A DNA stretch of 64,000 nucleotides, taken from positions 31,656 through 95,655 of the forward strand of contig JAHHIK010000017.1 of assembly GCA_019358935.1 (NCBI GenBank), in the 5' to 3' direction. The notes below the pieces were generated by a model that saw only the letters and a list, made by a program, of their open reading frames with translations, did no database searches and was not told where the DNA came from. Position 1 is the first letter of the stretch. Every line of letters begins with the position of its first letter. The DNA is from Tolypothrix carrinoi HA7290-LM1. GTDB taxonomy: Bacteria; Cyanobacteriota; Cyanobacteriia; Cyanobacteriales; Nostocaceae. Below, in pieces: positions 51,240 to 57,708 of the stretch. A program made the position numbers and the translations under genes.

Positions 51240-52346
51240 TTAACTTAGATAACAGTGACAATCAGGCTTGTCTAACAACGATTCAACTAAGGCATTGAGA
51301 GCAGTAGCAGCTAACAATCCACCACCCAAAGTTCCTTCTATCGTGATAAAAGGCACAGATGTTTGCATTAATTGTCGCTTTGCCGCTGGTGCATGACTAA
51401 AACCAATCGGCATCGCGATCGCTAGCGCCGGCTGAATTTTTTGATTGTTAATCGCTTCACAAACTTCTAAAAGTACTGAGGGAGCATAACCAATAACTAG
51501 CACACAACCTTTAGTTAGTTGCGGTAATTTTTCTCGCCATTCTTGATGCTGCCAAAAAGCAATTTCTGCTTCTTTAGCGGTTGTGACGTGGGGATTGTTA
51601 ATTAAAGTTTCAACTTTACATTTCAAGTGAGCTAATCGAGTATTATCTAAAGCTGCTGCGACTGAAGGAGTATCGACAACAACCTGACAGCCTGATTTTA
51701 GGGCTTCACGAGTGGAAGCGATCGCTTTATTCCCCAATCTCAAAAACGACACTAAACTAACATCCCCACAAGCTAAAACCATCTGCGAAATTAAATGTTG
51801 TTCAATTTCCGAACGGTCAGATAAATCAGGCAGCAACCATTGTAAAGATTCTTGAAAAATTTCCGGATGAGTATGAACTTCTGCATCCAACTTACTCCAC
51901 AGATTTTCTAGTTCTCCAACTCCTGCTTGAGTTTCTACTTCTAATAACTTGAGTTGAGAAAAAACTTCCGCTTGCATGATTTGACAATCTTTATCTCGTC
52001 CCAACAATCCTTCTAAAGCTGATGCGGTTTGCCGTAGTTGGGAAATTTGCTGCATAACTGTTCGATATTGCTGCTGAAGTTGCGACATCAAAGTAATGCT
52101 AGTATCTGATGAAGGTTCCACTTTCAGAATTTGCCGGATGTGGTTTAGCTGAAAGCCTTGCTGCTTGAGTGCGACAATGCGTTGCAACCTTATGACATCG
52201 TTTTCATTATAAAGGCGGTAGTTACTATGCGATCGCACTGCTTGCGGCAGTAATCCCAATTGATGATAATGTCTTACCATGCGAGGAGTAATCCCCCCAC
52301 CAACGGCATCAGTGAGTTCTTTAATAGTTAAGCAACCAGCGTTCAT
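51240..52346 (-). CDS. coaR: CoaR: MerR HTH fused to a precorrin-8X methylmutase-like domain
   Basis: TIKELT...TPRMVRHYHQLGLL...NYRLY; CobH-like VIGYAPS, MPIGF, GGGLLAATALNAL; C-terminal CHC. Confidence 0.82.
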   Translation of the reverse strand: MNAGCLTIKELTDAVGGGITPRMVRHYHQLGLLPQAVRSHSNYRLYNENDVIRLQRIVALKQQGFQLNHIRQILKVEPSSDTSITLMSQLQQQYRTVMQQISQLRQTASALEGLLGRDKDCQIMQAEVFSQLKLLEVETQAGVGELENLWSKLDAEVHTHPEIFQESLQWLLPDLSDRSEIEQHLISQMVLACGDVSLVSFLRLGNKAIASTREALKSGCQVVVDTPSVAAALDNTRLAHLKCKVETLINNPHVTTAKEAEIAFWQHQEWREKLPQLTKGCVLVIGYAPSVLLEVCEAINNQKIQPALAIAMPIGFSHAPAAKRQLMQTSVPFITIEGTLGGGLLAATALNALVESLLDKPDCHCYLS

Positions 52347-52780
52347 AAGACATACTGGGAAGTGTGGAAACCCCTGAGATACAGGTGCTACGCACCGCAT
52401 ATCGTCATGACGGCAGGGGAGGAAACACGACTCAGGCAGTAATAATATGCCGTGAGTCTTGTGTGGCTTGCTACCGCCTTAGAGCTACTTAATGCCGTGT
52501 GCTTTTGTGTTGTACTTTCGCCCAGACAATTATGGGCTGACATCTTTAACCCTGTACGCATAGCAAGTGGCGATAAGCCCGTGTGTATATATCCCTTCGC
52601 CTCTGACCGTCGTAGAGGTAGAAGATTAGGGAGGCGTCTTCTACGTACTTCGAGTTACCACACTCAGACGGTTCAGTTTACGTTAACCGCACAGGCTAGA
52701 CACTGGTTTAGTCCTGGATTGAGAAGGTGGTGAATCTTCCTTCTTCCAAGCCCCGTGAATGCGCGTCCGGGGTCAGTGAC
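52347..52780 (-). mobile_element. Non-autonomous IscB/IsrB-type (IS200/IS605 superfamily) element carrying a HEARO/omega-RNA scaffold, nuclease ORF deleted
   Basis: Minus strand starts GTCACTGACCCC...GGGGCTTG, contains GACGCCTCCCTAATCTTCTACCTCT and GGCGAAGGGA, then ATGCGT, and ends with a TTCCTCCCCTGCC...AGGGGTTTCC hairpin followed by ATGA. Confidence 0.68.
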
Positions 52781-53052
52781 CATTACAGATGCAGGACATT
52801 CCAGCTTTAGCGTAGCAATAAATATTGCATAATCGATGAATTAACCTTAAATACGCCTTTGGATATATTCTTCTAGATACTTGAAAAAGGGTAAATTGTC
52901 ATATTACCAACATTAACATCTGACAATCTCTAAGGTGTGGAGTTTTTGTGGCTTTTTGTACTTGGCATCGCCTTGAACAAAGCGCCAAGCGCGGCGGTTT
53001 TCGTTTCATGTCCCTTAGTACAGTTATGCCTAAAAACGAGAGCGTTTTTAAA

Positions 53053-53172
53053 TGCATTAATAATGCAAGCCGATGCATTAACAATGCAAGCCGATGCATT
53101 AATAATGCAAGCCGATGCATTAACAATGCAAGCCGATGCATTAACAATGCAAGCCGATGCATTAACAATGCA
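53053..53172. repeat. 21-bp tandem repeat with internal palindrome, 6 copies
   Basis: TGCATT-aa(c/t)-AATGCA-agccga repeated. Confidence 0.95.
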
Positions 53173-53273: not shown

Positions 53274-55583
53274 ATGTCCACATCAAATGACAGTGACTCG
53301 CATATCTCTAGGATGCTTTTCAGGTGGCTGCGCCGCATACCGCCTAAATTGCGCTACGTGCTGCTCGTGGTAATCTACCTGATTTTATGGGGAATACTGG
53401 ACAAAGTGTCACTTTCGTTTGAAACAACACCGGAAATTCAAATCTGGTATCCGCCGTCAGCCCTCGATTTTGTCCTTCTGTTGGTCTTCGGTATGCGCTA
53501 CGCTCCAGCGCTGTTGCTGAACACCCTGGTGCATGAATATGTGGTGACTCACCGCGACCTACATTTTATCACGCTGCTGATCTTCGATTTAATCACAACG
53601 ATAGGCTACGCCGGTGCTGGTGGCTTGCTGCTGTTGAAACTACAAATTAACCCCCGCTTGCGTCAGTTGCGCGATGTGGTCTGCTTTAACATCGTCGCAG
53701 TCTTGATTGCACCACTAGTCGTCGCTTGGCTGCAAATTTTAAACCTTGCATCGAGCGGGATTATCCCCTGGTCAAAGTTGGTTATGTACACGCTACATTA
53801 CTGGGCTGGAGATGCTACCGGCATCGCCATGCTAGCTCCATTTCTGCTGATTTCGCTACGTAAGCTGCCGTGGGTGTGGTCGCACACCGAACAGCAACCC
53901 CCAGCGACAGAGGGTAAGCGTAGCTTACCCACATGGCGAGAAGTTCCGGAGTTGCTTCTGGAGGGTGTCGCATTGGCTGCTGGGATTTTGACTGGGTATG
54001 CCGCACCGCGAGGAAATAATCTAGACTACACCTATTTCGTTTTTTTACCAGTAATTTGGAGCGGTTTGCGGCACGGGTTTGAGAGGGCAGCAGCGACGGT
54101 TTTGTTGATGAATGTCGGGGTTGCGTTGTTGGTGGTTGCCAAGTTCGGTTCATCTAATCTTTTGGTTTTGCAATTCGGCTTGATGGCGATTTCGCTAATG
54201 GGTCTGCTTGTAGGTGCCATCACCACTGACCGGATGCATACCGAGAAAGCCTTACGCGATTCTAACAAGCAGCTGACGCACAATGCTTTTCATGATGGAC
54301 TCACAGGTTTAGCAAACCGCTTTTTGTTCATGCAACACTTAGAGCGTGCAGTCGAATATGGCAAACGCGAACGCAATTTTCAATTCGCTGTACTCTTTGT
54401 TGACTTGGATCGGTTCAAGCTAATTAATGATAGCCTGGGACATCTACTTGGAGATCGCTTGCTGATTGCCATTGTTGGCAGACTCCAAGCTTGCGTGCGT
54501 CCCACGGATATAATTGCACGTTTTGGGGGAGACGAATTCACCATCTTGCTTGAGAATCTCTCGGATGTCAGCGACACAATACGTGTTGCCGAACGCATAC
54601 AAACAGAACTGTCATTGCCCTTCGATCTTAGCGGACAAGAAGTGTTCATTACGGCAAGTATCGGCATCGCCCTGAGTGCGACAAATTATAATCAACCAGA
54701 AGACATCGTGCGTGACGCTGACATCGCCATGTACCGAGCCAAGATCGGTGGCAAGGCACGCTACGAAATATTTAACACGAGTATGCACGATCGCGCAGTG
54801 GTACGCTTGCAGCTCGAGACGGATCTGCGCCTCGCGATTGAACGTCAGGAGTTTCTAATTCACTATCAGCCGATGGTGTCCCTGTCAAGTGGTATAATTA
54901 TTGGTTTCGAGTCGCTGCTACGCTGGCAGCATCCAGAACGTGGGCTTCTCTTTCCAAGTGAATTTATTTCCGTAGCGGAAGAAGCTGGACTGATGAGCTT
55001 AATCGACCAGTGGGTAATGCGTCAAGCTTGTCACCAGATACAACAGTGGCAAGAGCAAATTAAAAGATTTCCACCCTTATCAATCAGTGTCAATGTTTGC
55101 AATAAACATTTCATTCAACCGAATATAGTCGCGCAAATCAGCAAAATTCTTCAACAGACGAGCTTGGATGCTTCTCGCTTGAAGTTGGAGATTACCGAAA
55201 ACGTGATTATGGAAAACCATCGCTCTGCAACTGCCACGCTCTCGCAATTAAAAGCCTTGGGTATTCGGTTAGTTATCGATGACTTCGGTACAGGCTATTC
55301 ATCATTAAGTCGTCTACACCGTTTTCCGATTGATGAGTTGAAGATCGATCGGTCTTTCGTCAGCAATATAAATGCTAATGAGAAAAATTTAGAGATTACC
55401 GAGATTATCGTCATGCTTGGTAAAAAACTCGGTCTGGATGTGACAGCAGAAGGAATAGAAACAAAAGAGCAACTCGCACAAATCAAAGAGATGAAATGTG
55501 CATATGGGCAAGGATACTTTTTTTCTCAGCCATTGTCCAGTGAAGCCGCAGAAGCGTTAATTGTCGCAAATCCTCAATGGTAG
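53274..55583 (+). CDS. MASE1-GGDEF-EAL c-di-GMP enzyme
   Basis: IWYPPSAL and WAGDATG (MASE1); HDGLTGLANR, RPTD I-site, RFGGDEF; ESLLRW, DDFGTGYSS, EGIE. Confidence 0.9.
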   Translation: MSTSNDSDSHISRMLFRWLRRIPPKLRYVLLVVIYLILWGILDKVSLSFETTPEIQIWYPPSALDFVLLLVFGMRYAPALLLNTLVHEYVVTHRDLHFITLLIFDLITTIGYAGAGGLLLLKLQINPRLRQLRDVVCFNIVAVLIAPLVVAWLQILNLASSGIIPWSKLVMYTLHYWAGDATGIAMLAPFLLISLRKLPWVWSHTEQQPPATEGKRSLPTWREVPELLLEGVALAAGILTGYAAPRGNNLDYTYFVFLPVIWSGLRHGFERAAATVLLMNVGVALLVVAKFGSSNLLVLQFGLMAISLMGLLVGAITTDRMHTEKALRDSNKQLTHNAFHDGLTGLANRFLFMQHLERAVEYGKRERNFQFAVLFVDLDRFKLINDSLGHLLGDRLLIAIVGRLQACVRPTDIIARFGGDEFTILLENLSDVSDTIRVAERIQTELSLPFDLSGQEVFITASIGIALSATNYNQPEDIVRDADIAMYRAKIGGKARYEIFNTSMHDRAVVRLQLETDLRLAIERQEFLIHYQPMVSLSSGIIIGFESLLRWQHPERGLLFPSEFISVAEEAGLMSLIDQWVMRQACHQIQQWQEQIKRFPPLSISVNVCNKHFIQPNIVAQISKILQQTSLDASRLKLEITENVIMENHRSATATLSQLKALGIRLVIDDFGTGYSSLSRLHRFPIDELKIDRSFVSNINANEKNLEITEIIVMLGKKLGLDVTAEGIETKEQLAQIKEMKCAYGQGYFFSQPLSSEAAEALIVANPQW

Positions 55584-55644: not shown

Positions 55645-57708
55645 ATGTACCCAGAACGCTTAACTCAATTCACCAAAGAACATTCAGATACCGTAGCGGC
55701 ATTCGCTTGTGGTCTATTATTACTTCTAGGAGCATTTGCCTTACATCTCAATTTTTTAGGATTGGCATTGCTGCTACTCCCCGCAGCTTATGTGATTGGT
55801 GGCTACGAAAGCGCCCGCGAGGGATTAACTACCCTTTTTAAAGAAAAAGAACTCGATGTAGATTTACTAATGATAGTGGCGGCGTTAGGTGCTGCTGGTT
55901 TGGGTTTATGGCAGCGGGAATACCACTTAATTATCGATGGGGCAATTTTGATTCTCATCTTTGCCATAAGTGGCGCCCTCGAAGGTTACGCGATGCGACG
56001 CACTGAGCGCAGTATTCGCAGTTTGATGAGTTTGACACCTGATATCGCAATGGTTTTGCGTCAGGGAAGGGAAGTTTCTGTTTCGATTTCCCAATTAAAG
56101 GTAGGGGATGAAATTGTCGTCAAACCGGGAGAGTTAATTCCTACCGATGCAGTGATTGTATCAGGTTACAGCAGCATCAATCAAGCGGCGATTACCGGGG
56201 AATCTTTACCTGTAGAAAAGACGGTGGGTGAAGAAGTTTTTGCAGGTACACTTAACGGTTATGGTGCGTTGAAGTTGAAGGTGCATCAACCACCGGAAAG
56301 CAGTTTGATTCAACGTGTGATTAAGTTAGTAGAGCAAGCGCAGACTGAGGAACCACCTTCGCAACAGTTTATCGAGAGATTTGAAAGGAGTTATGCACGC
56401 TTCATTGTGATTGCTGGGATATTGCTAGCAACTTTACCCCCGTTTCTTTTGGGTTGGGATTGGGAAACAACGATTTATAGAGCGCTGACCTTCCTTGTGG
56501 TAGCATCTCCTTGTGCATTGATGGCAGCAATTATGCCGACGCTGCTATCGGGAATTGCCAATGGTGCCAGACAGGGGATTTTGTTTAAAAATGGTAGTCA
56601 GTTAGAAATGATGGGGAAAGTGAGAGCGATCGCTTTCGATAAAACTGGTACTCTGACTACAGGAATTGTGCAAGTTTTTCAAGTGATTCCTGCTGGTAAT
56701 TATTCGCAAGCTGATGTATTGAAAGTTGCCGCAACCGTGGAATCAGTTTCCGAACATGCGATCGGCAAAGCTATTGTCAAGGCTGCTGCTGATTTAAATT
56801 GGGTGAGTGCAGTTGAGGTGCGAGCTATCCCCGGACAGGGAATAGTCGGTATCAACTTTGACCACCAGGTAATTGTCGGTAATGCTGCTTTTGTGCAGAA
56901 GCATGTCACAAATTTACCGGAAGAATTGCAGAAATCGGCTTCAGTGTTAGAACAACAAGGTAAGACAGTCGTTTGGGTAGCGCAGGGGAGAGGGGGAGAG
57001 GGGGGGATGGGGGGACAAGGGGGACAAGGGGGACAAGGGGGACAAGGGGGACAAGGGGGAATCTCTTCTTTATCTACCTTGTCTCCCTTGTCCTCCCCCT
57101 CTCCCTTGTCCTCCCCCTCTCCCTTGTCCTCCCCCTCTCTCTCATCTCCTGAGGTGATAGGTTTGATAGCCATTACAGACGAGGTGAGGGCAGAAGCTGC
57201 TGCAACCATTACCCGCTTAAAGGCTTTGGGAGTTGAACAAATCGTTATGTTAACTGGCGATAATCAGCGTACTGCTGATAGTGTGGCGCAAGCAGTGGGT
57301 ATAAATCAGGTATATGCAGAACTTTTACCGGAAGATAAATTGGATGTAATCCGCCGTTTGCAAAAGCAGTATAAAACAGTGGCAATGGTGGGTGATGGTA
57401 TCAATGATGCACCAGCATTGGCTCAGGCTTCTGTAGGTGTTGCGATGGGAGTGGCGGGAAGTGATGTAGCATTGGAAACAGCAGATATTGTGCTGATGGC
57501 AGATAGGCTGGAGAAACTTGCAGTGGCGATGGATTTGGGAAGAAGAGCGCATCGCATAGTTAAGCAGAATATAGCAGTTGCTCTGTCTTTCATTATTCTG
57601 CTTTTGGTGGGTAATTTTCTCGGTAATGTTAACTTACCTATTGGTGTAATTGGGCATGAAGGTTCTACTGTGTTAGTTACTCTGAGTGGTCTGAGGTTGT
57701 TGAAATAG
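55645..57708 (+). CDS. coaT: P1B-4 heavy-metal (Co2+) P-type ATPase
   Basis: TGES, VASPC, DKTGT, GDGIND, HEGST; no N-terminal metal-binding domain. Confidence 0.88.
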   Translation: MYPERLTQFTKEHSDTVAAFACGLLLLLGAFALHLNFLGLALLLLPAAYVIGGYESAREGLTTLFKEKELDVDLLMIVAALGAAGLGLWQREYHLIIDGAILILIFAISGALEGYAMRRTERSIRSLMSLTPDIAMVLRQGREVSVSISQLKVGDEIVVKPGELIPTDAVIVSGYSSINQAAITGESLPVEKTVGEEVFAGTLNGYGALKLKVHQPPESSLIQRVIKLVEQAQTEEPPSQQFIERFERSYARFIVIAGILLATLPPFLLGWDWETTIYRALTFLVVASPCALMAAIMPTLLSGIANGARQGILFKNGSQLEMMGKVRAIAFDKTGTLTTGIVQVFQVIPAGNYSQADVLKVAATVESVSEHAIGKAIVKAAADLNWVSAVEVRAIPGQGIVGINFDHQVIVGNAAFVQKHVTNLPEELQKSASVLEQQGKTVVWVAQGRGGEGGMGGQGGQGGQGGQGGQGGISSLSTLSPLSSPSPLSSPSPLSSPSLSSPEVIGLIAITDEVRAEAAATITRLKALGVEQIVMLTGDNQRTADSVAQAVGINQVYAELLPEDKLDVIRRLQKQYKTVAMVGDGINDAPALAQASVGVAMGVAGSDVALETADIVLMADRLEKLAVAMDLGRRAHRIVKQNIAVALSFIILLLVGNFLGNVNLPIGVIGHEGSTVLVTLSGLRLLK
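56985..57148. repeat. In-frame STRR insertion within coaT
   Basis: GGGACAAGG array followed by the complementary CCTTGTCC array; encodes GGQ and SPLSSP repeats. Confidence 0.9.

Follow-up and report, generated by a model that had tools for sequence, protein, structure and literature searches.

IS605 elements are moved by TnpA, and the sites from which they have been excised are restored in a guide-directed manner. ISC1-1_MA has a 5′-GTCA end and is inserted at the target N|ATGA without target duplication (PMC4810608), and IsrB is a nickase, for which NTG has been reported as the cyanobacterial TAM (PMC9581776). Protein-less omega-RNAs working in trans are already known (PMC10691335; bioRxiv 2023.03.14.532601), their role being stated as unknown (PMC10691335), and a 343-nt Limnospira HEARO construct has been published (PMC12286853).

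The window analysed here is a stretch of 64,000 nt from Tolypothrix carrinoi HA7290-LM1. It very probably carries a non-autonomous IsrB-family element, which lies 5′ of ATGA and separates codon 1 of the cobalt-sensor gene coaR from codon 2, with a structurally intact omega-RNA and with isrB replaced by a 101-nt RNA module that likewise takes the site of the missing gene in cyanobacterial elements of the IscB, IsrB and TnpB types and ORF-less group II introns. The features of the locus, in the direction of coaR transcription, are as follows.

52809–52817, minus strand: putative coaR promoter element, an extended −10 box of sequence TG-N-TACGCT (pattern match)
52781–52800, minus strand: predicted guide, consisting of host flank and ending in the ancestral coaR start codon (52783–52781); this flank joins coaR directly in G001, G002, G003 and G009
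52347–52780, minus strand: whole ORF-less IS200/IS605 (ISC1/IsrB-type) element of 434 nt, its ends taken from empty sites and isrB-bearing relatives
52571–52780, minus strand: IsrB-type omega-RNA scaffold with the GTCA left end and its hairpin (52780–52747); HMM match of 145 bits, E = 6e-42
52467–52567, minus strand: uncatalogued 101-nt structured RNA module (comparative fold)
52432–52453, minus strand: small hairpin corresponding to the final codons and stop of the isrB gene of intact relatives, as seen at the right ends of L058, L068 and L064
52347–52419, minus strand: right end with a subterminal hairpin (52419–52371, CCCCTG..CAGGGG), an extra nested hairpin (52396–52384) and a 24-nt tail; 14 of 15 isrB-bearing loci share the layout
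52343–52346, minus strand: ATGA target site/TAM, whose ATG is the rescue start codon of coaR (empty sites and isrB-bearing relatives)
51240–52346, minus strand: coaR-type gene, 368 aa, with a MerR HTH and a precorrin-8X methylmutase-like (CbiC) domain, intact from the second ATG

The motifs quoted in the original prediction lie where it had placed them (left end at 52780, ATGCGT at 52561, TACGCT at 52814–52809, coaR ATG at 52346). It described an ORF-less omega-RNA element, which agrees with the scaffold score, the ATGA target and the lack of any IscB/IsrB coding remnant within the element by tblastn (best E 0.22). Its further claim, that guide and ATGA together rebuild the uninterrupted 5′-end of coaR, was borne out by the empty sites for which it had proposed to look in relatives: in four congeners (G001, G002, G003, and G009) the upstream flank runs straight into coaR. 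Both flanks were also found adjacent in a search of 60 relatives, and the element was missing from all 29 orthologous coaR loci listed, four of which keep the same upstream flank. Comparison with the empty sites revealed a discrete insertion 5′ of a 4-nt target without target duplication, and placed the ancestral coaR start at the ATG of 52783–52781, before the element junction. This junction corresponds to ATG|ATGA in G009 and to ATG|ATC or ATG|ATT in G001, G002, and G003, the proteins of the latter three starting with MINAG (the N-terminus of CoaR in the congeners is MINAG or MMNPG). Since the congener proteins start at the ATG preceding this junction, the element separates codon 1 of coaR from codon 2; thus, of the proposed insertion exactly at the start codon, the insertion stood and the position, before the start, did not. 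Nor does the terminal hairpin abut the coaR ATG as had been thought, 24 nt lying between them.

Subterminal hairpins are present at both ends of the element, like in the isrB-bearing relatives, and the extra hairpin nested in the right one has a similar counterpart in L091. Matches to the element were detected in 81 of the 301 genomes searched. In its own assembly (G000), which has seven Y1_Tnp matches, it is a single copy by blastn. Rfam searches found no intron family in the element, which is accordingly not an IStron or a group I or II intron. No excision joint was found in the contigs of the probable source sequencing run, contigs being prone to drop rare variants. Another run (X2) contained a 255-nt contig of depth 2 identical to 52509–52763, without flanks, and in run X15, which we guess to be an RNA run, a 587-nt contig of a related element had a depth of 129, that of coaR-like contigs being about 5, a difference that does not prove expression. 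The loose end of a 94%-identical coaR contig from RNA run X21 showed another empty ATG|ATG allele.

In many other genera CoaR starts at the second position, as seen in the orthologous loci, thus the protein made from the second ATG should, judging from these sequences, be functional. The SD-like pairing, calculated against the anti-SD motif, amounted to +0.7 kcal/mol (none) at the new start versus −3.3 kcal/mol at the old one, which makes lower translation a reasonable expectation, and coaR is probably translated less efficiently from the second ATG. The candidate −10 box is kept in G001 and G003 and altered in G009 and G002; its TG-extended pattern has five matches in the window versus 1.5 expected by chance, and it was not among the predictions of a sigma-70 scan of the window. 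Transcription starting about 7 nt downstream of this box would give a guide of 20–22 nt and would make the element a 5′-UTR of coaR. A 6+2+6 palindrome at 52828–52815 (minus strand), a possible operator that is kept in G001, overlaps the box. Between coaR and a membrane GGDEF/EAL gene (53274–55583) lies a 21-nt tandem repeat of 5.8 copies (53052–53172), which is dispersed in many relatives. The GGDEF/EAL gene is followed by a heavy-metal P-type ATPase gene (55645–57708), an order kept in G001, G003, and G009, and the ATPase gene has 9- and 18-nt repeats inserted in frame (56991–57139), apparently missing from the G001 orthologue.

Landing on a start codon is common in this family and no special event: of 141 distinct sites targeted by module-bearing elements, 70 begin a reading frame of 80 codons or more at the target ATG, compared with a background, drawn from one genome, of 15% of the 60,435 ATGA sites in G000 (the end-caller required RTGA and missed 51 loci). 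Survival of harmless insertions is a sufficient explanation of this bias. An SD motif built into the right end was considered as the cause of start-codon insertions and was unsupported (11/70 versus 14/71).

The scaffold was identified with an HMM of 14 omega-RNAs from isrB loci, from which the window was left out. It keeps 50 of the 54 consensus pairs (49–53 in the 14 model omega-RNAs), 14 pairs being kept through changed bases, and three of the four lost pairs fall in the last hairpin before the ORF site. The first 200 nt of the element match the region upstream of RRXRR proteins of 344–357 aa without an HNH match, and 14 of 15 such loci have the same right end, followed by ATGA. Although the element had been called a HEARO RNA, Rfam scans of the window and of the element returned nothing for it at gathering score or at E ≤ 10, HEARO included, while four iscB loci of the same genome, serving as a positive control, gave HEARO matches above cut-off. 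Omega-RNAs of the window's IsrB type reach 29–37 bits, compared with the HEARO cut-off of 83. By sequence criteria, the scaffold is of IsrB type and not Rfam HEARO/IscB.

The guide and ATGA together equal the empty allele, and the ATG of the target fits the NTG TAM (PMC9581776). In G000 there was no second target of the guide (best seed 10 nt), no second omega-RNA of the window's type by the scaffold HMM and no copy bearing iscB or isrB, for which a search had been suggested. The assembly has seven RRXRR matches; full-length frames were present at the iscB/isrB loci of C144, C148, and C141 and broken ones at those of C42, C131, and C38, and a cognate IsrB was not among them, the best tblastn identity being 38% (C148), an absence that is not proven in a draft of 184 contigs with 99.65% completeness. 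Judging from this draft sequence, the guide is probably an orphan in the assembly. Targeting of the empty allele by an IscB or IsrB supplied in trans, as envisaged in the original prediction, would be possible in principle, with no evident partner in the assembly.

The module (52567–52467) matches many genomes independently of the scaffold. It consists of the closing stem P1, a GUACA/CAAG loop, P1b, a second internal loop, P2, and a three-way junction with P3 and P4, whose loops (52532–52525 and 52511–52503, respectively) kiss. Single-sequence folding of the module was weak (z −1.9), thus the evidence for its structure is comparative. RNAalifold found essentially the same fold unaided from 21 sequences, with 29 pairs, 20 of them showing compensatory changes. 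When the loop–loop contact was included (alignment A1), 92.3% of the cells were paired and 23 of 33 pairs showed double changes. In 86 distinct further rows (A2), which lean toward the model as they were fitted to it, 94.3% were paired and 22 of 29 pairs covaried, and the 56 diverse rows of A4 gave 91.6% and 27 of 29 pairs. No shuffled control was as high in 500 trials for each alignment, and slid controls were paired at 29–45% (35–45% for A1) versus approximately 92–94% in register. The kissing pair, which was left out of the model, is U-A in 69, C-G in 16, and U-G in one of the 86 rows, and U-A in 35 and C-G in 13 of the 48 rows scored among the 56, with no mismatches. No Rfam family, whether riboswitch, ribozyme, SRP or other, matched over the module, and a possible resemblance to c-di-GMP-I and twister-sister RNAs received no support from Rfam at E ≤ 10.

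An AUG (52561) lies inside P1. The first codon at this position was ATG in 50, GTG in two, and TTG and ACG in one each of 54 rows, and a stop follows after 4, 7, or 10 codons in 40 of the 54. The module was also considered as a small protein gene and rejected, because in 159 of 186 copies the frame opened by the ATG is closed after no more than 10 codons (overall range of lengths 4–89). SD-like pairing before the P1 AUG was detected in 10 of the 15 copies from introns and 8 of the 22 of HEARO type, but in none of the 11 of IsrB type, that of the window included, and none of the six of TnpB type.

The first module model detected the module in 16 of 151 genomes of a phylum sample and in 38 of 151 of an order sample, with up to 32 copies per genome, and a broader model in 5 of 151 genomes of a class sample. 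A strict pattern, which is blind to distant homologues, occurred at 76 places among 185,579 species genomes, all cyanobacterial; the covariance-model searches were made within the phylum. G000 contains no further copies by blastn, nhmmer, and two covariance models, and the window module had no match in phage and plasmid collections. A free-standing copy scoring 83 bits, outside the model set, was found on plasmid 8 of Calothrix brevissima NIES-22 (AP018215.1, L415:1193–1298). It follows two hypothetical genes and has a TATAAT about 70 nt upstream; there was no Rfam match in 2.5 kb and no Rfam-detectable intron or HEARO within 1.2 kb.

The module is exclusively tied to the loss of the ORF and was never seen in an element that keeps its gene. 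Among the 127 HEARO matches above cut-off in three genomes with HEARO/IscB-type elements (G122, G185, and G016), the module came next in 65 cases, an RRXRR gene in 26, neither in 36, and both in none; of 65 RRXRR rows, 35 entered this comparison and the other 30 were checked by eye without change. No module in these genomes has RRXRR within 300 nt downstream. Apart from the window, 13 other distinct sequences of the IsrB type carry the module, as do TnpB-type elements at L066, L139, L195, L229, and L300, the last of which has the same right end as a TnpB-encoding element, and, in another layout, at L232. Relative to the omega-RNA, the module is invariably found on the side that faces the ORF. 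An iscB fragment was present within 700 nt of the module at only one of 114 distinct loci, beyond the end of the element, and at none of 76 distinct metagenome and viral loci, and none of 19 nuclease-gene loci contained the module at E ≤ 1. Among 20 hand-picked matches of lower score, 13 have Rfam D5/D6 above cut-off adjoining the module, which is located shortly upstream of D5 in 11 cases and inside domain VI in two (L378 and L379); of the other seven divergent loci, two are intron-like without an Rfam match and five are omega-type. No RT was found between the 5′ splice-like motif and D5 of the module-bearing introns when the loci were read with 1.5-kb flanks.

The module is dispensable, since several genomic copies of ORF-less elements lack it (L218–L221 and L225 of G122) and since five intron-bearing genomes have only 13 module matches versus 176 D5/D6 and 96 maturase matches. 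In place of the module, ORF-less omega-RNA elements may have a short hairpin or nothing (L218–L221, L225; L048, L052, L059, and L062), some of them lying directly before psbD- or rplR-like starts. At L402 and L404 (G467), module-bearing ORF-less introns immediately precede an RT frame and seem to be nested within a second group II intron, and the module copies of L206–L215 (G016) are interrupted at fixed points by two small hairpin repeats.

The tree of 101 short module sequences was poorly resolved, and its well-supported branches force at least five changes of the IsrB label. The nearest relative of the window module, identical at 81 of 90 nt, lies behind a HEARO RNA. These sequence relationships suggest that the module has spread by repeated capture or gene conversion. 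In six orthologous copies before one gene the module kept 91% identity versus 71% for the omega-RNA, which has lost its HEARO score, and at L085 and L198 most of the omega-RNA is gone and the module is kept.

How the locus arose and what the module does can be explained in several ways, among which we lean slightly toward an ORF-less IsrB-family insertion with the module as a substitute for the ORF. TnpA acting in trans would have placed the element at coaR; host transcription would then yield a guide against the excised allele, and an IsrB provided in trans could use it for nicking and restoration. As the four kinds of host of the module depend on four unrelated proteins, a common host factor is likelier than a partner protein. 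The module may stand in for the ORF by engaging such a factor or by blocking decay, a part of the explanation that we hold to be nearly balanced, with doubt slightly prevailing. The favored factor would be the ribosome, which would load at the P1 AUG and run into the kissing-loop core about 17 nt further on; a protein that binds RNA, or a role as a plain roadblock to nucleases, would also fit. In each case the RNA, although not translated, would remain stable and could compete for a partner produced in trans, and the downstream host mRNA would be kept alive. Support for the ribosome version is mixed, because the SD-like pairing seen in the intron and HEARO-type copies is absent from all IsrB- and TnpB-type copies, and the changes of the first codon at the P1 AUG also fit plain P1 pairing. 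A broader version, which we regard as unlikely, would make the module a general "cheater" RNA domain and a bacterial counterpart of the Alu domain, which lets protein-less parasites of IscB, IsrB, TnpB, and group II intron RT systems hold the ribosome or a shared host factor, survive, and capture partners in trans, and which transposons and introns have exchanged repeatedly throughout the cyanobacteria.

The free-standing Calothrix copy, the copies in intron domain VI, away from the ORF site, the failure of the core sequences to sort by host, with the repeated changes of the IsrB label, and the persistence of the module after loss or decay of the omega-RNA (L085, L198, and the six orthologous copies) are what would be expected of an independent functional RNA (a regulator, decoy, or antitoxin) or of a selfish hitch-hiker that settles in RNA-silent places and recombines between mobile RNAs without use to its carrier. 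We nevertheless find this distinctly unlikely: nearly all other copies lie exactly at the site of the lost ORF and none in an ORF-bearing element, although a passive passenger could equally sit in intron domain IV beside an ORF. Rather improbable is a ligand-sensing, riboswitch-like aptamer that would adjust splicing, the folding of the guide RNA, or the read-through to the host gene, as no Rfam riboswitch matched at E ≤ 10, the downstream genes are functionally unrelated, no terminator was found after the module in the window, and the positions in intron domains IV and VI provide no common expression platform; the closing stem, the invariant junction bases, the loop–loop contact, and the half of insertions that lie at host start codons would suit such an aptamer.

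Group II intron RNA must be copied whole, and a cut in domain IV or VI would break it, yet 13 loci carry the module there. This disfavors a self-cleaving ribozyme, which would free the omega-RNA at its 3′-end in the IscB/IsrB types and at its 5′-end in the TnpB types and create a new 5′-end for the host mRNA. No Rfam ribozyme matched either, and we consider the ribozyme very improbable in spite of the constant position on the ORF-facing side, the compact, pseudoknotted fold with many invariant unpaired bases, and the precedent of TnpB, which normally trims its own mRNA (PMC10278001). The view that an iscB/isrB element has simply lost its interior, ATGCGT being what remains of the beginning of the gene (the stub that the original prediction had seen there), is almost certainly wrong. 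The ATG does coincide in position with the start of the isrB ORF, and the right end still has the final isrB codons; however, the cognate IsrB proteins start with MFVPVV and not MRT, no coding remnant was detected by tblastn, and the same 100 nt covary in unrelated element classes and introns. ATGCGT opens a distinct, conserved RNA module, the unusual feature of the element, which the original prediction had overlooked, and is not a relic of iscB.

Returning to the module as a substitute for the ORF, it follows about half of the HEARO RNAs in three genomes (65/127), and with half of the insertions on host start codons it is part of many cyanobacterial 5′-UTRs. As a dedicated domain marking standalone omega-RNAs it makes their role testable by single mutations, for example in the kissing pair. 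If it stabilizes guide RNAs or aids loading in trans, it would be a candidate part for the design of IscB, IsrB, or TnpB guides.

A three-way junction with a loop–loop or pseudoknot contact is known from the SRP Alu domain, flaviviral exonuclease-resistant RNAs, and the purine riboswitch, and Alu SINEs are the textbook case of a non-autonomous element that uses an RNA fold to capture the protein of another element at the ribosome. The likeness of the module to these RNAs is no closer than analogy, given that none of them matched in Rfam at E ≤ 10. The module was found neither in Rfam 15 nor in the literature covered, where a nameless motif is hard to search for by words; Weinberg et al. (2009) or Altae-Tran et al. 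(2021) may show it. HEARO RNA (Rfam RF02033) belongs to the same biological class as the window scaffold and in most relatives immediately precedes the module, but the scaffold does not match it and the HEARO model ends before the module.

Like the standalone omega-RNAs or PATE-like IS200/IS605 elements (PMC10691335; bioRxiv 2023.03.14.532601), the window element has no protein gene, and it shares with them both IS ends, an omega-RNA, a guide from the flank, and a predicted reliance on TnpA and nuclease in trans. In the available text of these sources no structured RNA is described at the ORF site, where the window element has a covarying module of 101 nt common to other element classes. With ISC1 (IsrB) elements such as ISC1-1_MA of Microcystis (PMC4810608) it shares the 5′-GTCA end, the insertion 5′ of ATGA, and the lack of target duplication, and its omega-RNA is homologous to those of the RRXRR proteins of 344–357 aa without HNH, as in the IsrB nickase type (PMC9581776); unlike them, it lacks isrB and has no cognate protein in the assembly, and nicking is predicted only. 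ORF-less group II introns that rely on an IEP supplied in trans (PMC4424553; PMC4649490) are likewise protein-less RNAs dependent on a partner made elsewhere, and the available portions of these papers mention no such conserved module. ORF-less group II introns share the module, in domain IV or VI, whereas the window element has no intron domains. Thus, the element and its insertion are of a known kind, and what appears to be new is a strongly covarying RNA module that links OMEGA transposons with group II introns.
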